Below are positions 4,873 through 58,369 of a stretch of 64,000 nucleotides of DNA, in pieces. Origin of the DNA: an uncultured Candidatus Saccharibacteria bacterium (GTDB taxonomy: Bacteria; Patescibacteriota; UBA1384; UBA12157; JAENIV01). The DNA lies in NCBI GenBank assembly GCA_964433905.1, contig CAYSSM010000001.1, positions 60,246 to 124,245 on the forward strand. The letters run 5' to 3'. Position 1 is the stretch's first letter; the number at the start of each line of letters is the position of its first letter. Made by a program: the position numbers and the translations under genes. A model generated the notes under the pieces. It worked only from the letters and a program-made list of their open reading frames with translations. It was not told where the DNA came from and did no database searches.

Positions 4873-5692
4873 TATTCTAGTTGCTGGCGAAGGCGGTCAA
4901 GGCGTTCAATCAATCGCTAAAATCATAAATACTTCAGTAGATGAGTCTTCTAAAGAAAGTTGCTACCTGCCAAGCTTTGGGGTAGAACAGCGTGGTGGTG
5001 TTTCTTTAGCTTTTTTAAGAATAGATGCTAAAAAAATACTATATCCGCGTTTTGATAAAGCAGACATTATCGCAGCTTTATGCAGCCGATCGATCGATTC
5101 AATCAAAGACTATATCAAAGATGATACTTTTTTGATATACGACGGCTCAATTGTGGAAAATAGCGTTTTAGATCAAATTAAACCTAAAGTTAAAAAATAT
5201 ATAAATATTCTTGCCAATAATATCGCCATAAAAAAATATTCCGTTAAGTCAGCTAACATGTTGATGTTGGGCGGGGTTGTGGCGCAATTGATAGATGTTA
5301 ACCTATCGATTATCGAAAACAATATTAAGAATGAATTCAAAGATAAAATCGCTGAAAATCCCGAGATTGGGACTATGAATATTAACGCTTTTCACGAAGG
5401 ACTAAATATTGCCAAAAGTTTTGACCAAAGTAGCGAAGAATTGGTCGGTAAGCCAGCGCACGAAATAAAAACGGAATACAAAGATGATAAGAAAAGTTGG
5501 ATTCGTTTTCCCGAATATTGCAAAGGCTGCGGCCTTTGTCTTGTAAGATGTCCTGTTCAAGCGCTTCATTTTTCAAAAGAAGTCGGATTTTTAGGTAATC
5601 CTTTGCCCGAAATTGATATTGATAAATGTATTACTTGCGGTCAATGTGAACAAATCTGTCCAGACGGAGCAATAAAAGTTGAAAAAAGTTAA
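4865..5692 (+). CDS. 2-oxoacid:ferredoxin oxidoreductase gamma subunit fused to a delta (2x[4Fe-4S] ferredoxin) domain.
   Basis: MINILVAGEGGQGVQS is gamma-subunit-like. The C-terminus has two CxxCxxCxxxCP motifs (CKGCGLCLVRCP and CITCGQCEQICP). I chose the ATG at 4865, which overlaps the porB stop by 8 nt, over the ORF-track start at 4823. Confidence 0.7.
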   Translation: MINILVAGEGGQGVQSIAKIINTSVDESSKESCYLPSFGVEQRGGVSLAFLRIDAKKILYPRFDKADIIAALCSRSIDSIKDYIKDDTFLIYDGSIVENSVLDQIKPKVKKYINILANNIAIKKYSVKSANMLMLGGVVAQLIDVNLSIIENNIKNEFKDKIAENPEIGTMNINAFHEGLNIAKSFDQSSEELVGKPAHEIKTEYKDDKKSWIRFPEYCKGCGLCLVRCPVQALHFSKEVGFLGNPLPEIDIDKCITCGQCEQICPDGAIKVEKS

Positions 5693-5704
5693 CAAATTAT
5701 GCCA

Positions 5705-5747
5705 CATCTGACAATACACATCGCAAGTGAATTAGCGGATGTGTCTT
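5705..5747. repeat. REP-like palindromic element, copy 1: CCACATC..ACACATCGCAAGTG..TTAGCGGATGTGTC.
   Basis: The inverted repeat ACACATC / GATGTGT lies directly 3' of the RAYT gene. Two related copies are at 6432-6475 and 39250-39300. Confidence 0.6.
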
Positions 5748-5750
5748 AAA

Positions 5751-6398
5751 TTATTCATGTAAAAGATCTTTGATTCTTGTTAAATCTCGTGCGTAACTGG
5801 CATAATCTTCAACAAATTCCCGATAATTTTTAGGTGACCCTATTATTTTTAAAATAAAACCGGAATGGCAAAGCCGATCATTGGTATTGTTTAGGTAATG
5901 ATGATATGAAGACCAACTATAAGAAGAGCTGTCATTGCAAATACCAGAGGTATAAGGATTAAGGTGAAGATATCGAGACAAGTGTATCAATTGTTCGTCA
6001 GATTCTATCATAACGACTCGAAACCGTCCTTGGGTTAAAGTTCCCACTCTATCGTTCTTTTCATTATAATATCTTGTGTAACTATCCAAAGACCGTCGCA
6101 TGAAAATACTAATTCCATTATCAACAATCTGACGAAGAAGCAAATGAAAATGATTGGGCATCAGACAATAAGCATATATCTCCACTAGTGGTTTTTGAGG
6201 TTCTATTCTAAGAATTTTATCTATCTCCGTCTTATCAATTTTTGAGAGCCTAAGTTTATCTTTATTTTCAAGATAAAAACTGAAGGTTTTGAGTAGTCTT
6301 AAGTAGTCAAAATCGAAATCAAAAAGATTTTGTTTAGCGACTCCCCTATTATAGACATGATAAAGGTGGTCATTGGCATACACGGGTTTAACATACAT
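5751..6398 (-). CDS. REP-associated tyrosine transposase (RAYT; IS200/IS605-family Y1 HuH transposase).
   Basis: HVYNRG, the HuH motif CLMPNHFHLLL and SRYLHLNPY (catalytic Tyr region) are all present. About 215 aa, flanked by REP-like hairpins. Confidence 0.8.
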   Translation of the reverse strand: MYVKPVYANDHLYHVYNRGVAKQNLFDFDFDYLRLLKTFSFYLENKDKLRLSKIDKTEIDKILRIEPQKPLVEIYAYCLMPNHFHLLLRQIVDNGISIFMRRSLDSYTRYYNEKNDRVGTLTQGRFRVVMIESDEQLIHLSRYLHLNPYTSGICNDSSSYSWSSYHHYLNNTNDRLCHSGFILKIIGSPKNYREFVEDYASYARDLTRIKDLLHE

Positions 6399-6431
6399 AA
6401 GTTTAATATATCATTTATCTTTAGTTTTTGT

Positions 6432-6475
6432 CCACATCGTTAAAGACACATCGCAAGTGTTTAAGCGGTAGTATC
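6432..6475. repeat. REP-like palindromic element, copy 2: CCACATCGTTAAAGACACATCGCAAGTGTTTAAGCGGTAG.
   Basis: It shares CACATCG..ACACATCGCAAGTG..TTAAGCGG with copy 1 and lies just 5' of the RAYT start. Confidence 0.55.
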
Positions 6476-6496
6476 CAAGAAAAAACGCTTAGATAT

Positions 6497-6531
6497 TTGA
6501 AAAAGGTGGTAAAAATATGATATATTAAATT
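6497..6531 (+). promoter_or_regulatory. Candidate sigma70-type promoter for tRNA-Ala (TTGAAA-N17/18-ATATAT/TATATT).
   Basis: TTGAAAAAGGTGGTAAAAATATGATATATT lies about 45 nt upstream of the tRNA. Confidence 0.35.
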
Positions 6532-6574: not shown

Positions 6575-6646
6575 GGGCCTGTAGCTTAGAGGAAAAGCGT
6601 TAGTATGGCATACTAAAGATCGCGAGTTCGAGTCTCGCCAGGTCCA
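6575..6646 (+). tRNA. tRNA-Ala (anticodon GGC).
   Basis: Cloverleaf folded by hand. The acceptor stem GGGCCTG/CAGGTCC carries the G3:U70 Ala identity pair. D stem GCTT/AAGC. Anticodon stem TTAGT/ACTAA with loop ATGGCAT (U33, GGC, A37). T arm GCGAG-TTCGAGT-CTCGC. Discriminator A73. No CCA is encoded. Confidence 0.85.
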
Positions 6647-9534: not shown

Positions 9535-9977
9535 TGAATAGGCATCTTTCGAGAGTTATTATTATGCAGACTTTATACGAATGGGACTTTCGACCAGATT
9601 CTGATATTTCAGAAATAAAACAAAGAAACATAGATAACTATCAAGAAGATGCTGATAACAAATTCATTGACAATACTATCAACGGTATTATCAAAAATCA
9701 AAAGACGATCGATGACGAAATTACAAAAGCAGCCCCGGAATGGCCGTTAGAGCAAATTTCTTCAATCGATAAAACAATTTTACGGATCGCCATTTTTGAA
9801 TTATTAAAATCCGATGAAGTTCCACCCAAAGTAGCTATTAATGAAGCGGTAGAATTAGGAAAAACTTTTGGCGGTCAGAACTCTTCCAAATTTATTAATG
9901 GGGTTTTAGGAACTGTTTATCGTAGCTCATCAAAATATAATCCCAAAGACGACAAAAAGGAGAATAAGGATGAGTAA
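9534..9977 (+). CDS. nusB: Transcription antitermination factor NusB.
   Basis: RHLSRVIIMQTLYEWDF and KVAINEAVELGKTFGG..SKFINGVLG are NusB motifs. There is an ATGA overlap with rpmF. Confidence 0.8.
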   Translation: MNRHLSRVIIMQTLYEWDFRPDSDISEIKQRNIDNYQEDADNKFIDNTINGIIKNQKTIDDEITKAAPEWPLEQISSIDKTILRIAIFELLKSDEVPPKVAINEAVELGKTFGGQNSSKFINGVLGTVYRSSSKYNPKDDKKENKDE

Positions 9978-10674
9978 CATTGAAGAATTTGCTAAAAAAA
10001 TAAATATTACATTTAATAATGGAGATCTCTTAAGGCAAGTTTTCGTTCACAGATCATATTTGAACGAAAATATTGGTTTTGATCTGGATCATAATGAAAG
10101 ATTGGAATTTTTGGGAGATGCAGTTTTAGAATTAATCGTTACAGAATATTTATATCAAAATTTTGACAATCCGGAGGGTGAACTAACAAATTTAAGATCA
10201 GCTCTCGTTAAGGGTTCCATGCTTTCTAATATCGCGCAAGAACTTGAAATTGACAAATTTTTATATTTATCCAAAGGTGAGGCAAAATCCGAAGGTAAAT
10301 CAAAACAATTAATCATGGCAAACGCTTTCGAGGCACTAATTGGAGCGATTTATCTTGATCAGGGTTATGAAGTCACATCGGAATTTATTAAGAAGAATAT
10401 TATTAAACATCTAAAAAAAATTATGGATCAAAAGCTGTATCTTGATCCTAAAAGTCATTTACAGGAATTAGCACAAGATCAACTTTCGGTTACGCCAAAC
10501 TATCAAGTATTGGGTGAGCATGGACCCGATCATGCCAAAAGTTTCACGGTTGGATGTTTTATTTCCAAAAAATTAATTGGAGAAGGTTCTGGCAGCTCTA
10601 AACAAACTGCCGAAAGCGCCGCTGCTTCATCGGCTTTAGAACATTGGACGGAAGCTAAGTCACAAGACTTTTAA
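9970..10674 (+). CDS. rnc: Ribonuclease III.
   Basis: RNase III signature ERLEFLGDAVLEL and a C-terminal dsRBD. Confidence 0.9.
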   Translation: MSNIEEFAKKINITFNNGDLLRQVFVHRSYLNENIGFDLDHNERLEFLGDAVLELIVTEYLYQNFDNPEGELTNLRSALVKGSMLSNIAQELEIDKFLYLSKGEAKSEGKSKQLIMANAFEALIGAIYLDQGYEVTSEFIKKNIIKHLKKIMDQKLYLDPKSHLQELAQDQLSVTPNYQVLGEHGPDHAKSFTVGCFISKKLIGEGSGSSKQTAESAAASSALEHWTEAKSQDF

Positions 10675-20602: not shown

Positions 20603-20716
20603 TTAACCCTGACGCTGCTTATGTTTGGGAGTACTGCAAATTACCCGCAATACTCCATGACGGCGAATTATTTTACATTTTTGACAAATTTTTTTGACCG
20701 ATGGTCTTACTTTCAT
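20603..20716 (-). CDS. rpmJ: Ribosomal protein L36 (37 aa; not in the ORF track).
   Basis: Hand translation of the minus strand gives [37 protein letters not shown]. The stop TAA is at 20603-20605. Confidence 0.85.
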
Positions 20717-20772
20717 AAGTATAAATCCTTGGTTGACACCCTGTGGTCTTTGCCACAGGGGGATTTACAAAC
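20717..20772 (-). promoter_or_regulatory. Conserved leader/repeat immediately 5' of rpmJ with a perfect 8-bp hairpin (CCCTGTGG-TCTTTG-CCACAGGG).
   Basis: In sense orientation it reads TTTGTAAATCCCCCTGTGGCAAAGACCACAGGGTGTCAACCAAGGATTTATACTT-ATG. It shares the 15-nt GGATTTATACTTATG context with map. Confidence 0.4.
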
Positions 20773-21966: not shown

Positions 21967-22684
21967 CTTTTGTTACTGCGATTGTATGTTCAAAATGAGC
22001 CGATAAGGAATTGTCGATTGTTACAACAGTCCAGCCATCGTTAAGTATCTTTACTTTCCAATCGCCAGCTGAGACCATTGGTTCGATGGCCAATGTCATC
22101 CCCTCTTTTAAAACCGGTCCTGTTTTTCTTTTGCCAAAATTTAATATTGATGGTGGTTCTTGTAAATTTGTACCAATGCCATGTCCAGCCAAATCCCGGA
22201 TAATACTGTAATTTGCGCCTTCAATAATTGATTGAATACAATTTTGAATATCACCTAAATAAACTCCGGGTTTAATTTTTGATATGCCTTCGTGAAGCGA
22301 TTCTTTGGTAATTTTTAGCAATTGTTTTTTTTTAAAATCAATTTTACCGATAGCCACGGTGGCAGCGGTGTCGGTGTGATATGATTTCCATAATATTCCA
22401 ATATCAAGACCCAAAAGATCGCCCTCGCGCAAGATTCTGTTCGATGGTATGCCATGGACGACCTCATTGTTAACTGAAGTGCAAATTGTCGCCGGATAAC
22501 CATGATGACCTAAAAAAGATGATTTAGCACCGGATTTCTTAATTTCTTCTGTTGCGATGTTGTCAAGTTCTTTGGTAGTTGTTCCGGGTTTTGAAGCAAC
22601 AGTTAGTATATTTAAAATATGAGCGGCAATTTTACCACCTTCCTTCATAATTTGAATCTCTTTTTCTGTTTTAATCGAAATCAT
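21938..22684 (-). CDS. map: Methionine aminopeptidase type I.
   Basis: MetAP pita-bread fold motifs (..GHGIG.. and ..HFEHT..). Confidence 0.9.
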   Translation of the reverse strand: MISIKTEKEIQIMKEGGKIAAHILNILTVASKPGTTTKELDNIATEEIKKSGAKSSFLGHHGYPATICTSVNNEVVHGIPSNRILREGDLLGLDIGILWKSYHTDTAATVAIGKIDFKKKQLLKITKESLHEGISKIKPGVYLGDIQNCIQSIIEGANYSIIRDLAGHGIGTNLQEPPSILNFGKRKTGPVLKEGMTLAIEPMVSAGDWKVKILNDGWTVVTIDNSLSAHFEHTIAVTKDGVEILTHE

Positions 22685-22803
22685 AAGTATAAATCCATGG
22701 TTAACACCATATGGTCTCGGTCACAGTTCCATATATCTTTCAAAAAATAGTTTTTAATTTATATTAACGCCCTGCGGTCTCTGTCACAAGGGGATTTACA
22801 AAT
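22685..22803 (-). promoter_or_regulatory. Second copy of the rpmJ-type leader upstream of map, split by an insertion with the core duplicated.
   Basis: 22685-22726 AAGTATAAATCCATGGTTAACACCATATGGTCTCGGTCACAG and 22768-22803 ..CCCTGCGGTCTCTGTCACAAGGGGATTTACAAAT compare with 20717-20772. Confidence 0.35.
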
Positions 22804-26321: not shown

Positions 26322-26388
26322 GCTTTAATAATTCTCGTAGGATCGCATTAACAACTGTGCCTGTATTTGTCTCATTGTTTCTATTATA
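26322..26388. repeat. Exact 67-bp direct duplicate of the secY 3' end; the second copy is at 26445-26511.
   Basis: GCTTTAATAATTCTCGTAGGATCGCATTAACAACTGTGCCTGTATTTGTCTCATTGTTTCTATTATA is identical in both copies by inspection. A partial third fragment lies at 26305-26320. Confidence 0.8.
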
Positions 26389-26447
26389 TTTTGCCGAAGC
26401 AAAATTCGGAAATAGAAACAATATTTTTCAATAATTAACACTTGGCT

Positions 26448-27722
26448 TTAATAATTCTCGTAGGATCGCATTAACAACTGTGCCTGTATTTGTCTCATTG
26501 TTTCTATTATAACAGAAACCATAATTAAAATACCAGTGCCACCAATTACTAAAGTATTTATCTTAGTAATTGCCTGGATAATAAACGGCAAAACAGCAAT
26601 AACTCCAAGGAATAAGGCACCGGTAAGATTAATTCGAGAGATAATTCTTGCCAGATAAGATGAAGTTTCCCCTCCGGGTCTGACACCAGGGATAAAACCG
26701 CCTTGTTTTTGCAGATTTTCTGAGATTTGATTGGGTTTTAAAACAATCCCAGTATAAAAGAAGGTGAACAAGATAACTAATATAAAGTAGAAAATTCCAT
26801 AAAACAAATTGTTATTAAACAAATTAGCAACCCATGTAGAAGCGGAAGCGAGCCACTCTGAACGAGCCTGAGTCAAGACTTTAGCCGCTACCCCAGGAAA
26901 GATCATGATCGACATGGCAAAGATAATTGGGATGACCCCAGCGGTATTTACTCTGATTGGAAGATAAGAGTCAACTCCGCCGTACGATTTCATGCCGCGA
27001 ATGCGCCTGGCGTATGATACGGGTATTTGGCGCCGACCCTCATTAACAATAATAATTAAAATAACTACAGCAATAGCAATGAGCCCAAATAAGGCTAGAC
27101 TAATAATTTTAGTCGTATCCATAACTGCCAGCGTATTTCTTACTTGGGCAGGTACACTGGCAATTATTCCTAAGGCAATAATCAACGAGATACCGTTACC
27201 GATGCCATTTTCAGAAATTAATTCTCCAATCCACATCAGCAAGATCGTGCCGGCGGTAATCGAAAGTAACATTACCGCTAATTGGAGCGGCGTCCATGAA
27301 AACAATATCCCTTGACTTTTAAGCAAAGTTAACATGCTAAAAGATTGGATCAGTGCTAACGGCACGGTGATAATTCTCGTCCAGTAATTAATTTTTTTCT
27401 GACCTGATTCACCTTCCTTTCGAAGTTCTTCCAATGAAGGAATCACCATGGTCAAAAGCTGAACAATAATCGTGGCGGTAATATACGGTCCGACACCCAT
27501 CATAATAATCGAAAAATTTTCCATCGAACCGCCGGAAAACATATTTAATAAACCAAAAATTTGGTTTCTCGAGAAAAAAGTTCTCAAAGCTTCAATATCA
27601 ACACCGGGCAGAGGAATATGAGCTAAAACTCTCGTAATAACCATTAGACTAATAGTATAGAGAATCTTTTTTCTTAGATCAGGCAGGGTAAAAACTTGAT
27701 TAATTGTTTGCCAAATACGCAT
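26448..27722 (-). CDS. secY: Preprotein translocase subunit SecY.
   Basis: 10-TM SecY pattern. Position between rplO and (normally) adk. Confidence 0.9.
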   Translation of the reverse strand: MRIWQTINQVFTLPDLRKKILYTISLMVITRVLAHIPLPGVDIEALRTFFSRNQIFGLLNMFSGGSMENFSIIMMGVGPYITATIIVQLLTMVIPSLEELRKEGESGQKKINYWTRIITVPLALIQSFSMLTLLKSQGILFSWTPLQLAVMLLSITAGTILLMWIGELISENGIGNGISLIIALGIIASVPAQVRNTLAVMDTTKIISLALFGLIAIAVVILIIIVNEGRRQIPVSYARRIRGMKSYGGVDSYLPIRVNTAGVIPIIFAMSIMIFPGVAAKVLTQARSEWLASASTWVANLFNNNLFYGIFYFILVILFTFFYTGIVLKPNQISENLQKQGGFIPGVRPGGETSSYLARIISRINLTGALFLGVIAVLPFIIQAITKINTLVIGGTGILIMVSVIIETMRQIQAQLLMRSYENY

Positions 27723-32986: not shown

Positions 32987-33551
32987 TTTTACCTCTTTTT
33001 TTATTTTCAAAAGGCTGAATACCTCGTAGCCCTTCGGTCTGAGACCTCAGGATCGAAGACTTGCTACGAGGATGAAGCCTATTTGGAAACAAACTTGCCC
33101 CATCGGGGATACTCCGCCGCTTGCTGCGGAGTAGTTTATTTTCGTTTGAAAATATTATTGTTGCGTGCGATGATCGTTTTAAGATTGCGGTGGCCCGACC
33201 TCGATGAATCATGCGACGGCGTTTTAATTTTGGCCCTTCGTTAATCATTATTGACTTAATATAGATGGGGCCGTCAAGATTATATTTATTTTTAGCAATG
33301 TCGATCCCATTCTTGATGACCGAAATCAACGGTTTAGCGGCAAGCTTAAAAGAAAAAGTCAAAATATCAACTGCTTTTTCCGCTTCCTGGCCGATAACTA
33401 AATGTGCCACTAAGCTCATTTTATCGGGAGTCGTTCTAATAAAACGATCGCGGACAACTATTTCCTGAATTTTTTCAGATTTCTTGTTATCGAATTTAAC
33501 TTTATCTATTTTTTGCGTATCGTTTACTTTTACTTTTTCCACAATTGCCAT
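32976..33551 (-). CDS. rplV: Ribosomal protein L22 with a ~50-aa basic C-terminal extension encoded by a GC-rich hairpin repeat (copy C of the new family).
   Basis: The L22 domain spans about aa 28-140. The frame then runs through 33131-32976 without a stop and ends 11 nt inside rpsC. Confidence 0.8.
   Translation of the reverse strand: MAIVEKVKVNDTQKIDKVKFDNKKSEKIQEIVVRDRFIRTTPDKMSLVAHLVIGQEAEKAVDILTFSFKLAAKPLISVIKNGIDIAKNKYNLDGPIYIKSIMINEGPKLKRRRMIHRGRATAILKRSSHATIIFSNENKLLRSKRRSIPDGASLFPNRLHPRSKSSILRSQTEGLRGIQPFENKKRGKNGS
33016..33137 (-). repeat. Hairpin repeat family, copy C (minus orientation), inside the rplV 3' end.
   Basis: Its reverse complement reads AAACTACTCCGCAGCAAGCGGCGGAGTATCC..GCAAGTTTGTTTCCAAATAGG..TCCTCGTAGCAAG-(23-nt insert)-CTACGAGGTATTC. 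It aligns with 51451-51545. Confidence 0.7.
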
Positions 33552-39249: not shown

Positions 39250-39300
39250 TTTCTATCCTTTAGACACATCGTTATATCCACATCGTAAGTGTATTAGTAG
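39250..39300. repeat. Solo REP-like palindromic element, copy 3.
   Basis: AGACACATCGTTATATCCACATCGTAAGTGTATTAGTAGATGTGCTC shares CACATCG(N7)CACATCG(C/T)AAGTG and the CACATC/GATGTG inverted repeat with 5705-5747. Confidence 0.55.
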
Positions 39301-39357
39301 ATGTGCTCTTTCCTTATTTAGATGCTATTTTATGTTCTCGACTATGCTCGAACTAAA

Positions 39358-41454
39358 TTATTTCTTCTTTCCCTCGATAATCTGTTGGGCGATGTGGCGA
39401 GGAACTTCGGCGTAATGGTCGAATTCCATCGTATATGAAGCCCGTCCTTGAGTCATGGAACGAACCGAGGTTGCATAGCCGAACATTTCCGAAAGAGGCA
39501 CCATCGCATCAATGACTTTTTGTTTAGCCCGATCAGACATTTTTTCAATATGACATCTTTTTGAGTTAAGATCTCCTAAAACATCACCCATAAACTCTTC
39601 AGGAGTGACAACTTCCACTTTCATAATCGGCTCAAGTAAAATCGGATCGGCTTTTTTCACTCCGGCTTGCAAAGCCATTGAACCGGCAATTTGAAAAGAT
39701 AGCTCCGATGAATCAACATCATGAAACGAGCCATCGTAAAGCATAACCGACATATCAACCAACGGATAGCCGGCAATTACTCCTTTAGTCATGGCTTCTT
39801 TAACGCCTTTTTCAACCGCAGGAATAAATTCCTTGGGAATTGTGCCACCGACAACTTTATCGATAAATTCAAAGCCTTCTCCATGTTCTTTTGGAGCCAG
39901 TTCCAGCCAAACATGGCCGTATTGACCGCGTCCACCGGTTTGGCGAATATACTTTCCTTCTTGACGGGCGGTGGCTTTAATCGTTTCTTTGTAGGCAACT
40001 TGGGGAGCGCCGACATTGGCTTCAACATTAAACTCCCGTTTCATTCTATCGACAATAATTTCCAGATGAAGTTCGCCCATTCCTTTAATAATTGTTTGGC
40101 CAGTCTCAATGTCGCCTTTAACTTGAAAAGTAGGATCTTCTTGAGTTAAGCGATTTAGGGCAATGCCCATTTTTTCTTGATCGGCTTTGGTTTTTGGCTC
40201 AATGGCCACCGAAATAACCGGTTCAGGAAAAGTAATTGATTCTAAAATAATTGGCGATTTATCGTCGCAGAGAGTGTCGCCGGTAGTCGTTTCTTTAAGT
40301 CCAACAGCAGCGGCAATTTCTCCGGCATAAACTTCCTGAACTTCTTCGCGGGCGGCAGCGTGCATTCGCACAATTCGGCCAATGCGTTCTTTTCTATCTT
40401 TGGTGGTATTTAGAACATACGAACCGGCTTTAAGAGTGCCTGAATAAACCCTAAAGAAGGTCAAAGTTCCAACAAAGGGATCCGAGGCAACCTTAAAAGC
40501 TAGGGCTGAAAAGGGCGCTTCATCGGATGTTTCGCGAGCAACTTCTTCTTCAGTTCTTGGTTTGAGACCTATAATCGGAGGAACATCTAACGGCGAAGGC
40601 AAATAATCGATGACTGCATCCAACATTGGCTGGACTCCTTTGTTTTTCAAAGCCGAGCCGCAGAACACCGGAATAAGTTTATTGCTTATGGTCGCCACCC
40701 GTAAAACCTTCTTTAATTCTTCGTAGGTTGGCTTTTTTCCATCAAGATATTTATTTAAAAGAGTGTCATCTTGCTCGGCAATTTTTTCAATTAAAATTTG
40801 GCGGTATTTATTAACCCGTTCATGCAATTCAGCTGGAATTTCTTTTTCTATTATTTCCTGACCTTTATCGCCTTCAAAATAAACCGCTTTCATTTTCAAA
40901 AGATCGATAATGGCCGTAAATTTATCTTCAGTGCCATCGGGAATCTGCATGGCGACCGCGTTGTCAGTCAAGCGTTCTTTGATTGAACTAAAAGAATGAT
41001 CAAAATCCGCCCCCATGCGATCAAGCTTGTTAATAAAGCAAATTCTGGGAACTTCATACTTATCGGCTTGATGCCATACAGTTTCCGACTGCGGTTCAAC
41101 GCCGGCGACACCGTCGAAAACAACTACCGCGCCGTCAAGAACCCTCAGAGACCTCTGAACTTCGGCCGTGAAATCAATATGACCAGGGGTATCGATAATA
41201 TTGAAGCGATATTTTTCATTGGGTTTGTCTGTGGTTGCCCAAAAACAAGTGGTGGCAGCTGAGGTGATAGTGATTCCGCGTTCCTGCTCCTGTTCCATCC
41301 AGTCCATCACCGCCTCGCCTTCATGAACCTCACCGATTTTATAAGTTTTACCCGTGTAATATAAAATACGCTCTGAGACAGTAGTCTTACCCGCGTCAAT
41401 ATGGGCAATAATGCCGATGTTACGATTATTTTCTAAAGAATATTCCCGCGCCAT
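39358..41454 (-). CDS. fusA: Elongation factor G.
   Basis: AHIDAGKTT, 698 aa, five-domain EF-G. Confidence 0.95.
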
Positions 41455-51209: not shown

Positions 51210-51452
51210 ATGAAACAATCAATTGCATTATTAACTATCTTTTTGAGTTTAATCGTATTTTCCAATGTTACCAATGTCGCCAGAAATCAAAAACAAACCT
51301 TAGTTACTCCGTCGCCAGTAGTCAACAAAAGTGATATCAAGGATGCAGAAGTCAACCGCTACAACAACAAGTACCAAATCCAAGTTAATTATGATGTTAA
51401 TTCAATTACTGAAAAATTAAACTGGATAACTCAAAACGAATTAGCCAAATAA
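51210..51452 (+). CDS. Small secreted protein (signal peptide plus a ~55-aa mature part).
   Basis: Strong SD TAAGGAGCAAAAAATG and signal peptide MKQSIALLTIFLSLIVFSNV. Confidence 0.5.
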   Translation: MKQSIALLTIFLSLIVFSNVTNVARNQKQTLVTPSPVVNKSDIKDAEVNRYNNKYQIQVNYDVNSITEKLNWITQNELAK

Positions 51453-51545
51453 ACTACCTCGCAGCAAGCTGACGAGGTATCCCTGAAGGGAAAGTTTGTT
51501 TTTAACAGGTTTTCATCCTCGTAGCAAGCTACGAGGTATTCAACC
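51451..51545 (+). repeat. Hairpin repeat family, copy A (full length, two hairpins).
   Basis: AAACTACCTCGCAGCAAGCTGACGAGGTATCCCTGAAGGGAAAGTTTGTTTTTAACAGGTTTTCATCCTCGTAGCAAGCTACGAGGTATTC begins within the stop codon of the small ORF. Confidence 0.7.
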
Positions 51546-56311: not shown

Positions 56312-56370
56312 ATGTATAAGGGAAAGCCTACAATATCCAGTTTAACTTAACACGCAAGAATGTCAAATAT

Positions 56371-56430
56371 AAACTACTCTGCGGCTTGCCGCAGAGTATC
56401 CTGCGGAAAGTTTGTTTCCAAACAGGTTGA
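56371..56430 (+). repeat. Hairpin repeat family, copy B (short; lacks the second hairpin).
   Basis: AAACTACTCTGCGGCTTGCCGCAGAGTATCCTGCGGAAAGTTTGTTTCCAAACAGGTTG lies directly downstream of the infB stop. Confidence 0.65.
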
Positions 56431-56440
56431 AAATAAAAAC

Positions 56441-58369
56441 TTATTCCCCCAATTTTCGAGTTCGTTCTTCTTTTTTATAACATTCCAATGAGTCCCCCAC
56501 TAAAATTTTGGTTGGAGATTCTACTTTAAGACCGCATTCAAAACCCTCCGCCACTTCGGAAGTGTCTTTTTTATTTTGTTGTAAAGAGGTAATCTCGCCC
56601 ATACCAATAGTATCTTTATCACGAACAATCCTGACTTGGCAATGATCTTCTAATTTTCCTTTTGTTACCCTTCCACCAATAATTTTTTCATTTTTAGATG
56701 TCTTAAAAACAGCTAAGATTGATAGCCGACCGATTTCAGTTTCAATGATTTCCGGCTCAAGTAATCCTGATAGAGCGGCGGTTAAATCATCCAATAATTG
56801 GTAAATAATATCGTAGATAGAAATTTTAATATTTTCGCGGCGAGCCAAATTCATAACATCGGTTGACGCTTTAACGCGAAAGCCAATCACCAAAGCATGG
56901 GAGGCAACCGCCATATTGATATCTGACTCGGAAATATCTCCAACTCCCTCGTGAATAATTTTTATTTTAACTTCTTTATCTTCCAAATTCTTAAGTGAAC
57001 TCTTAATCGCTTCAAGCGAGCCGGCAACATCAGACTTAAGGACAATTTTGAGTTCTTTTATTTTTCCCGCTTTGATATCTTGCGAAAGTTCGGTGATGGA
57101 AATAACTCTGCGTTTAATTGTTTTTGTTTTAGTTAATTCTTTGGCAGTCTTTTCATTTTCAACAACCAAGAATCTGTTGCCAAAATCCGGTAGGTCCTGC
57201 AAACCGGCGATTCTAACCGGAACCGAAGGAGCAGCTTCTTTTATTTTCTTGCCCAAATAATTTTCCATAATCCTAACTTTGCCATAAGTATCACCGATAA
57301 CAATAGGGTCACCGATTTTTAGAGTTCCCTCTTGAACTAAAACCGTAGCAATGGGACCCATACCAGATTGCATATGCGACTCAATCACCACGCCAGTTGC
57401 AGAAAGCGTTGGATCAGCTTTAAGCTCTTTAAGGTCGGCAACCAGTAAAATCATTTCCAACAAACTATCGATATTTTTTGTTTCCTTGGCTGAAACATTG
57501 ATCATAGGCACATCACCGCCCCACTGCTCCGACAAAAGACCGTTGTCGGCTAATTGTCTCTTGGTTTTATCAATATCGGCATCGGGCAAGTCAACTTTAT
57601 TAATAGCCACGACAATTGGCACACCCGCTTCCTTGGCATGGTTTATAGCCTCAATCGTTTGCGGTTTTACGCCATCGTTTGCCGCTACCACCAAAACAAC
57701 CACATCGGTAATATTAGCCCCGTGAGCTCGCATGGCCGAAAAGGCCTCGTGTCCGGGAGTGTCCAAAAAAGTGATTTTGCGTGATTTAGACGCAAAATCA
57801 TCCTGAGTTTTACGAAGGATCTCTCGATTAGATTTGCTTCCTTGAGATGATGTTTCGTCTTTTGGACGAATTGTGACTTGATAAGCGCCGATATGCTGAG
57901 TGATGCCGCCTGCTTCGGTGGCAATAACATCCGTGTGGCGGATGGCGTCAAGCAATTTGGTTTTACCATGGTCAACATGGCCCATAACCGTAACTACCGG
58001 AGATCGCAGTTTTAGATTCTTTTTAACTTGTTTTAGAGATGCAACTATTTTCTCTTCTTCCTTCAACTTTACCTCAACGGCAAACTCATCAGCAATAATA
58101 GCCATTGTGTCAAAATCAATGAGTTCATTAATCGTCGCCATGACACCGTTTTTGACAAGTTTGGAAATTATTTCCGTAACGGACAAATTCAAAATATCCG
58201 CAAATTCCCGCACCGTTAAAACAGGCGAAATTAAAACAATTCTTTTTTCGGTTTTTTCTTTTTCGACTTTTGCCTCTTTAACCGCTTTGTTTTCTTCCAC
58301 TTGCGTTAAGCGCTTGCCTTCGGCTTTAGCTTCTTTTTTGCTTAATTTTCTTTGCTTTCTTTTTGCCAT
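56441..58369 (-). CDS. infB: Translation initiation factor IF-2.
   Basis: G domain [20 protein letters not shown]; 642 aa. Confidence 0.95.
   Translation of the reverse strand: MAKRKQRKLSKKEAKAEGKRLTQVEENKAVKEAKVEKEKTEKRIVLISPVLTVREFADILNLSVTEIISKLVKNGVMATINELIDFDTMAIIADEFAVEVKLKEEEKIVASLKQVKKNLKLRSPVVTVMGHVDHGKTKLLDAIRHTDVIATEAGGITQHIGAYQVTIRPKDETSSQGSKSNREILRKTQDDFASKSRKITFLDTPGHEAFSAMRAHGANITDVVVLVVAANDGVKPQTIEAINHAKEAGVPIVVAINKVDLPDADIDKTKRQLADNGLLSEQWGGDVPMINVSAKETKNIDSLLEMILLVADLKELKADPTLSATGVVIESHMQSGMGPIATVLVQEGTLKIGDPIVIGDTYGKVRIMENYLGKKIKEAAPSVPVRIAGLQDLPDFGNRFLVVENEKTAKELTKTKTIKRRVISITELSQDIKAGKIKELKIVLKSDVAGSLEAIKSSLKNLEDKEVKIKIIHEGVGDISESDINMAVASHALVIGFRVKASTDVMNLARRENIKISIYDIIYQLLDDLTAALSGLLEPEIIETEIGRLSILAVFKTSKNEKIIGGRVTKGKLEDHCQVRIVRDKDTIGMGEITSLQQNKKDTSEVAEGFECGLKVESPTKILVGDSLECYKKEERTRKLGE

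Follow-up and report, generated by a model that had tools for sequence, protein, structure and literature searches.

The DNA analysed here, a stretch of 64,000 nucleotides from an uncultured Candidatus Saccharibacteria bacterium (contig CAYSSM010000001.1, positions 60,246 to 124,245; called the window in the following), contains a gene for a HUH/Y1 protein that is enclosed by two copies of a short repeat and located between the por operon and a tRNA-Ala(GGC) gene. This region is probably a fixed, single-copy, vertically inherited cassette of ~775 bp similar to the known REPtrons and TIRtrons, built from a class-2 Y1 HUH gene (the Y1 gene) and a low-copy cognate hairpin repeat. The product would be a single-strand-DNA endonuclease/transferase resembling the REP (repetitive extragenic palindromic)-associated tyrosine transposases (RAYTs) and the TIRYTs, encoded with a copy of its own hairpin-forming repeat on either side. 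An earlier reading made without database searches (the sequence-only reading) had described the same region as a RAYT gene bracketed by REPs at a tRNA gene. Its placement of the unit between the por operon and the tRNA gene is correct, with the por gamma/delta stop codon at 5692, and the motifs that it had read in the open reading frame (ORF), HVYNRG, HFHLL (within PNHFHLL) and RYLHLNPY, are all present in the 215 residues.

The protein matches the Pfam profile Y1_Tnp (PF01797), by which the Y1 assignment was to be checked, above the curated threshold of 23 bits (29.1 bits, E 1.2e-6). The HuH motif comprises H83-F-H85, the catalytic tyrosine is Y143 within RYLHLNP, and the tail motif YSWSSY follows. 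In an alignment of 117 relatives H83, H85, Y143, N147 (of RYxHLNP), and S164 (of WSSY) are invariant, and the tyrosine motif of class 2, Y---NP, is kept as RY[IVL]HLNP. The AlphaFold2 (AF2) model has a pLDDT of 93.7 and its fold agrees with 4ER8, 2VJV, and 2XM3 in Foldseek searches. The top match was 4ER8, the Escherichia coli TnpA-REP bound to a REP hairpin (E 1.9e-7, TM 0.75 on the target), followed by the TnpA proteins of IS608 (E 1.6e-4) and ISDra2 (about E 1e-3). The sequence profile search against the PDB agrees with this ranking of TnpA-REP ahead of the IS200-type TnpA: 4ER8 is matched with E 1.7e-4 over both the HuH and the Y motifs, ISDra2 with E 0.035 and only partially. Similarly, all 117 homologues match the NCBIfam RAYT model NF047646 (best E 6.9e-19), whereas only three match the IS200 model, and these weakly. 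The assignment of the ORF product as a HUH/Y1 protein that is nearer to RAYTs than to IS200 transposases is therefore supported, and to this extent the RAYT identity proposed by the sequence-only reading stands. The catalytic part is followed by a helical domain of ~65 residues with three to four helices in the AF2 model. No Pfam domain could be detected in this tail in any of the 117 members, and in particular Bac_DnaA_C, HTH_23, and HTH_28 were matched by none of them at E<=0.1.

The two flanks of the gene share the exact 14-mer ACACATCGCAAGTG (5716-5729 and 6446-6459), and a second exact 14-mer would be expected by chance, from simple arithmetic, only ~5e-4 times per 64 kb. The 14-mers are parts of longer quasi-palindromic copies of ~44 nt that are 75% identical to each other. 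With a profile made from the copies of orthologues, three significant matches and no more were obtained in the 64 kb (E 4e-16, 1e-15, and 2e-13), the third extending over 39258-39309, and all three have one orientation. The flanking copies are thus direct repeats rather than an inverted pair. In the flank motif read from the letters, the left copy has CACATCT instead of CACATCG, and the spacer that follows CACATC[GT] has six instead of seven nucleotides. Of the inverted repeat ACACATC/GATGTGT, the left copy has the full form (5716-5722 / 5738-5744) and the solo copy the shorter CACATC/GATGTG; in the right copy it is degraded (GTAGTAT). The motif also recurs, as had been asked: there is one further copy in the window, and the repeat co-varies with the gene across relatives.

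The downstream copy begins 10 nt past the stop codon of por and extends to 5 nt short of that of the Y1 gene (5751-5753). Its inner core, an imperfect hairpin with one A.A/T.T mismatch, occupies 5717-5729 (+ strand CACAT-CGC-AAGTG), and its outer arms are at 5703-5708 (CACATC) and 5738-5743 (GATGTG). In the upstream copy the inner core lies at 6447-6459, and the outer stem is degraded relative to the orthologous copies. The solo copy, a singlet and the only one in the 64 kb, is intergenic, with the fusA stop codon (39358) on one side and a gene for a DUF7544 membrane protein on the other. Its position is identical in nine sampled populations, with one SNP only. A possible fourth copy at 56550-56568 (E 0.064) is within an ORF and was treated as chance. 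Searching Rfam at the gathering threshold with the entire window returned only tRNA and thus no known RNA family for the repeats, and the downstream copy was rejected as an intrinsic terminator because no terminator was called there and no T-run follows. In a relative (L106, 5289-5420), behind fusA and a conserved block, there is a clear intrinsic terminator (GAGCGGAGA...TCTCCGCTC and a T-run); in the window (39300-39360) the solo repeat occupies the position of this terminator, and there is no T-run. The GC skew changes its sign near 12 kb, and cassette and solo copy may therefore be on different replichores, though on the same strand.

In the orthologues that are 85%, 74%, and 68% identical to the Y1 protein the same element is found on both sides of the gene in a more intact form, a nested palindrome that reads CACATCCGC-TAA-GACAC-TTACGAT-GTGTC-TAT-GCGGATGTG on the gene strand. 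Judged by this comparison, the window copies have partly lost the nested palindrome. The inner stem can alternatively be drawn as CAC.T / A.GTG with a loop of 3 nt, and its T.T mismatch recurs in 11 of 15 copies. At two positions of the stem the changes between lineages are compensatory (GC/UA/CG and AU/CG). The covariation score of the stem is 0.18, compared to <=0.10 for slid pairings, and was reached by 8 of 500 shuffles. In one of the 68% orthologues (L098) the downstream copy is inverted relative to those of the window, L089, and L090. In a relative, a paralogue with 52% identity is encoded at a distance of 13 kb from the orthologue. It is flanked on either side by a related palindrome of its own, TTACACATC(C/G)GATGTGTAA, of which an additional solo copy lies 8 kb away. 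A metagenome scan with CACTTRCGATGTG-N8-GATGTG returned 12 stretches, of which 10 were chance matches in high-GC contigs and only the two with the 68% orthologues, L096 and L098, were real. The contigs of these two both break in or at the cassette (L096 1-44, L098 1153-1484), the end of one being 17 nt away from the upstream repeat and that of the other inside the Y1 gene, which may reflect assembly trouble at the repeat.

The exact Y1 protein is found in nine places and always in one context. The window encodes only one family member, and near-identical extra units are absent from its 64 kb. The order por, Y1 gene, tRNA-Ala(GGC), and leuS is kept in four Berkelbacteria lineages, with orthologues in this arrangement at 85% (L090), 74% (L089), and 68% identity (L096 and L098). 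The Y1 proteins of the window and L089 share 74% identity, compared to 79% for porB, 68% for porA, 52% for porGD, and 48% for leuS. Purifying selection on the Y1 gene must thus be at least as strong as on its housekeeping neighbours. The comparison with a relative without the insert, proposed by the sequence-only reading, could be made with L110, which is similarly distant (porB 85%, porGD 57%, and leuS 46% identity). There, por is followed by a spacer of 31 nt, tRNA-Ala(GGC), and leuS-L32-nusB-rnc, and neither the Y1 gene nor the repeat is present in the spacer between por and the tRNA. Compared to L110, the window has ~816 extra nucleotides (5693-6508), of which 774 are repeat, gene, and repeat. 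With the two repeats marking the ends of this DNA almost exactly, the cassette was gained or lost as a block, and this block-wise presence and absence does show an insertion sequence (IS)-like past.

The box GTAAAA(A)TATGATATATT upstream of the tRNA is common to the window and L110. As L110 has the tRNA-Ala(GGC) gene in this position too, but no cassette, the tRNA does not belong to the cassette and was already there. The cassette itself is located upstream of the tRNA promoter, and no repeat derived from the tRNA is present. Among 60 homologue loci, a tRNA within 200 nt was found in only four. The tRNA as an integration target, the classic neighbourhood that had been seen in it, was rejected for this low number and for the empty site of L110. 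On the contig of the 85% orthologue (L090, ~1-160) the stretch beyond the tRNA holds not leuS but, as it appears by eye, an ORF for a GIY-YIG-like nuclease on the reverse strand. The closest locus among the GTDB homologues listed (L010, 9780-9854 / 9977-10606; 47% identity), from a metagenome-assembled genome labelled Nanoarchaeia, has a divergent tRNA-Ala(GGC) 123 nt upstream of the Y1 gene and neither por nor leuS nearby. In two Omnitrophota loci, L063 (6334-6407, 7463-9853, 9983-) and L035 (6911-9313, 9908-), leuS is directly upstream of the Y1 homologue, and one of them also has a tRNA-Ala(GGC) nearby. The proximity to tRNA-Ala or leuS in these three loci could be chance or an old linkage.

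To see the family beyond the orthologues, the best 80 of at least 594 GTDB species-representative stretches encoding relatives were compared; these proteins are 33-47% identical to the query and belong mostly to Patescibacteria and in some cases to Omnitrophota and Elusimicrobia. For the 79 usable loci the 120 nt upstream were compared to the 120 nt downstream of the gene, and 58 of them share a repeat with a score >=12. The mean score is 18.1; in mismatched locus pairs it is 7.7, with a 95th percentile of 10. The shared repeats are short palindromes specific to each locus, such as ACACCCTTGGGGTGT, CCACCTCTAAGGTGG, and CAACCTCGAAGGTTG, located at distances of up to ~70 nt from the start codon and ~40 nt from the stop codon. 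The two repeats are clearly direct in 20 of the 58 loci and clearly inverted in 14; 24 loci are ambiguous. In 690 kb there are 14 solo copies of the 16-mers specific to each locus (<=2 mismatches), which corresponds to 2.0 per 100 kb and is 6.5-fold above the 0.31 per 100 kb of cross-locus controls; the one solo copy in the 64 kb of the window fits this density. By extrapolation, these would be low-copy repeat families with tens of copies per ~1-Mb genome. In a relative (GCA_040961015.1) a copy of the family is also located downstream of fusA, on the opposite side of the conserved block AATAGCATCTAAATAARGAAA(A)AGAG compared to the window, which suggests that the copies of the two lineages were inserted at separate points.

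The family is very large, with 2,853 clusters at 50% identity for E<=1e-30 and 21,611 for E<=1e-10, and its proteins already carry the database label 'transposase'. The occurrence of such a gene in a genome of the Candidate Phyla Radiation (CPR), which had been thought remarkable, is therefore not notable in itself. In the literature searched we found nothing that links RAYTs or REPINs to Patescibacteria except for an incidental K07491 annotation.

The upstream repeat is connected to a promoter-like site. On the gene strand, the -35 hexamer overlaps the gene-proximal end of the repeat, and the -10 hexamer ends 6 nt before the ATG. This geometry is conserved in L089 and L090, and also in about 20 distant homologue loci, where TTGACA is located 34-38 nt before the start codon with a spacing of 16-19 nt (17 in most) to TAnnnT. 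In the 100 nt preceding the genes of the family, TGACAC, GACACC, and TTGACA are 10- to 24-fold enriched, and the enrichment of TTGACA/TGACAC is far greater upstream than downstream of the gene. The promoter hexamer is fused to a half-site of the palindrome (TTGACACC). From this spacing the mRNA of the Y1 gene would be leaderless or near-leaderless, and the fusion suggests that the gene is autoregulated. The features of the cassette are listed in Table 1.

Table 1. Positions of the cassette, its repeat copies, and the adjacent tRNA gene in the window
Feature	Position	Strand	Basis
Downstream copy of the ~44-nt quasi-palindromic repeat	5702..5745	-	Pairwise repeat comparison, profile
Gene for the 215-residue HUH/Y1 protein (TnpA-Y1 class 2, RAYT/TIRYT-like)	5751..6398	-	Profile, motif, and structure searches
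Promoter-like site TGGACA-18 nt-TATATT	6405..6434	-	10/12 matches, TG before the -10
Upstream copy of the ~44-nt repeat, orientation as downstream copy	6432..6475	-	Comparison, profile
tRNA-Ala(GGC), neighbour and boundary marker, outside the cassette	6575..6646	+	tRNA call, comparison with L110
Solo repeat copy with the orientation of the other two, 70% identity to the reference copy	39264..39307	-	Comparison, profile

How the cassette may work can be imagined from related systems. The protein would recognise an imperfect hairpin in single-stranded DNA, namely the stem CAC.T/A.GTG with its conserved T.T mismatch inside the outer CACATCCGC/GCGGATGTG stem, and Y143 would cleave beside this hairpin using a metal bound by H83 and H85. 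It might also rejoin DNA and so occasionally seed or move solo copies such as the one downstream of fusA. Because the upstream repeat overlaps the -35 hexamer of a leaderless-type promoter, the protein probably also controls its own transcription. Hairpin binding, cleavage, mobilisation, and autoregulation are what we infer by analogy with E. coli TnpA-REP and IS608 TnpA.

Several observations weigh against a RAYT-like cassette with a cognate hairpin. The protein misses the equivalog cut-off of the NCBIfam model REP_Tyr_transpos (NF047646; 47.2 vs 80 bits), and in this respect the RAYT label of the sequence-only reading is overstated. As predicted single strands the window copies fold only weakly (z-scores of -1.8, -0.1 (-0.08), and -2.0). 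On both strands there is no GTAG or GTGG as a GT[AG]G foot 5' of the hairpin; GTGG is only found inside the 3' arm (GATGTGG). Together with the direct orientation and the single solo copy, the missing foot means that the repeats are not classical REPs, contrary to what had been proposed. The mixed orientation of the flanking repeats in the family is not obviously predicted by a single strand-specific mechanism, and solo copies are rare, most of the 20-kb homologue loci having none. Finally, the fixed position of the solo copy in the nine populations gives no sign of recent movement.

The flanking hairpins could instead be the ends of an autonomous insertion sequence of the IS200/IS605 type, a unit of ~780 bp that still transposes as single-stranded DNA. 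IS608 and IS200 have direct flanking hairpins on the same strand, and the size of an IS200 unit is close to ~780 bp. The hairpins of the cassette are likewise direct and on one strand, L110 has the por/tRNA-Ala/leuS site without the unit, with extra DNA bounded almost exactly by the two repeats, and some genomes hold two to three family members. However, the tyrosine motif is the Y---NP of class 2 and not the Y---Q of IS200, and the IS200 model touches only 3 of the 117 members. There is one copy in the window and one context over the nine places, and the same site is occupied in four lineages by proteins that are 68-85% identical, have intact catalytic residues, and are more conserved than leuS. 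Paralogues within one genome are only ~52% identical and have different repeats, the downstream copy of L098 is inverted, and solo repeats occur without a gene. Given the Y---NP motif, the single copy with its fidelity to one site, the divergent paralogues with repeats of their own, and the solo repeats, it is unlikely that the cassette is an active IS200-type element. Another reading, which we consider very unlikely, would make the repeats common cis-regulatory elements of this gene in DNA or RNA, an operator or promoter upstream and a terminator or stabiliser downstream, without any cleavage or mobility, the solo copies being coincidental or just further operators. It would explain why the -35 hexamer of a well-placed promoter overlaps the upstream repeat, with the same TTGACA/TAnnnT geometry in 20 homologue loci, why TTGACA/TGACAC is enriched far more strongly upstream than downstream, and why the downstream copy is located between convergent genes. 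But the same element is present on both sides of the gene in 58 of 79 loci, in either orientation, the downstream copy lacks a T-run and a terminator call, and solo copies exceed the controls 6.5-fold and are at different positions in related genomes. In addition, the encoded protein has the fold and the catalytic residues of a hairpin-cleaving nuclease.

The RAYT/TIRYT-like cassette remains the reading that we prefer. A bolder version of it, which we regard as rather doubtful, would see in the CPR-wide family of 215-residue proteins not a working transposase but a domesticated, hairpin-specific single-strand-DNA nuclease with a host function, whose own hairpin was built into a leaderless promoter to act as a switch for autoregulation. 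The host function could, for example, be the processing of structured DNA at replication forks, or the marking or organising of a few intergenic sites. If true, this would provide a function and a cognate DNA site for TnpA-Y1 subclass 2.1, a subclass without a reported DNA element so far.

RAYT-type genes are the textbook case of transposases that no longer copy themselves and are kept by their hosts. The tiny CPR genomes tolerate little spare DNA, yet they keep this gene at one site over a long divergence and with a conservation above that of leuS, accompanied by its own co-evolving hairpin repeat, which is fused to the promoter, and by a handful of solo copies. The system is compact and poor in repeats, and the putative cognate DNA site of a subclass-2.1-type protein is therein obvious. 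For annotation this means that such 'transposase' calls in CPR genomes are not evidence for active insertion sequences or for tRNA-targeted integration.

The window contains other repeats as well. A second, unrelated family is found at 33050-33150 (+), 51440-51540 (-), and 56356-56420 (-), with the pattern TGGAAACAAACTTTCC...GGATACTCCGC.GCTTGCTGCGGAGTAGTTTATTTT; the stem of its GC-rich hairpin changes in a compensatory way between the copies, and a T-run comes after the hairpin. One copy is directly past the stop codon of the ORF 56441..58369(-). From these features, this family looks like a recurring terminator or 3'-end module. There is also a perfect direct repeat of 67 nt (26322-26388 / 26445-26511, 123-nt spacing), and repeats with 85% identity are found at 20713-20771 and 22681-22802. 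Both GC and AT skew flip their sign between 8-12 kb and 12-16 kb, with the maximum of the cumulative GC skew at ~12000. This switch coincides with a change in gene orientation and may be a replication landmark or only an effect of the coding strand.

Within the TnpA-Y1 proteins, Quentin et al. 2018 (PMC6006769, Table 1) give subclass 2.1 the signature NH[YF]H, FQ (instead of WQ/WE), Y[IV]HLNP, and SS in the proximal tail. The consensus of the 117 sequences (PNHFHLL, FQG, RYIHLNP, WSSY) carries this signature, and by motif, in a comparison that is not a phylogeny, the Y1 protein matches subclass 2.1. This subclass is the second-largest, corresponds to group 1 of Bertels, and includes most TIRYTs of Di Nocera et al. 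2013 (PMC3733652). Quentin et al. (PMC6006769) detected no REP-like structures adjoining its genes; CPR genomes are not mentioned there. The cognate hairpins of subclass-2.1-type proteins across CPR, and the fusion of such hairpins to a leaderless-type promoter, appear to be undescribed in the literature searched. The length of 215 residues is similar to the median of 238 in the subclass. In contrast to the subclass as reported (PMC6006769), most of the CPR loci analysed here carry flanking repeats, and none of the 117 members has a Bac_DnaA_C, HTH_23, or HTH_28 domain at the C-terminus. As in Bertels group 1, copy numbers are low and the words in the flanks are only slightly repeated in the genome. 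Bertels et al. 2017 reported ~12 occurrences per replicon for the flanking 16-mers of group 1, and the density of the repeats in our family is close to this figure and far below that of classical REPs. The TIRtrons of Di Nocera (PMC3733652) are RAYT-like genes with flanking repeats that are not REPs, a few of which form small dispersed families. Their RAYT-like gene between non-REP repeats resembles the cassette described here, but the flanks in the window are direct and not inverted, and they lack GGGG and thereby the motif GGGGWSAS that many of the terminal inverted repeats (TIRs) carry.

The IS200/IS605 elements (IS200, IS608, and ISDra2; subclass 1.1) have in common with the cassette the HUH/Y1 fold, hairpins on the same strand at both ends, a compact unit of ~0.8 kb, and the existence of filled and empty sites among relatives. 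They differ in the Y---Q motif and the short TnpA, which consists of the core only, from the Y---NP protein of 215 residues with its tail domain. In addition, the cassette has no tnpB, is present in a single copy with long-term site fidelity and under strong purifying selection, and its paralogues are divergent, each with its own repeat. The REPs that accompany TnpA-REP have a 5' GT[AG]G foot and form inverted or REPIN pairs, while the repeats described here have no such foot and are direct, and instead of the more than 100 copies per genome, often in inverted pairs, of classical REPs and BIMEs (bacterial interspersed mosaic elements) there are roughly 1-2 per 100 kb. The Y1 protein itself is only 15% identical to TnpA-REP, is below the NCBIfam equivalog cut-off, and has the extra C-terminal helical domain of ~65 residues. 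Nevertheless, the E. coli REPtron (subclass 2.2, Bertels group 2, 4ER8) is the top structural and profile match, with the same combination of HUH and Y---NP. Like the REPtron, the cassette is a single-copy, vertically inherited gene with cognate palindromic repeats on both sides and solo extragenic copies, and like the REPtron hairpin its hairpin has a conserved mismatch.

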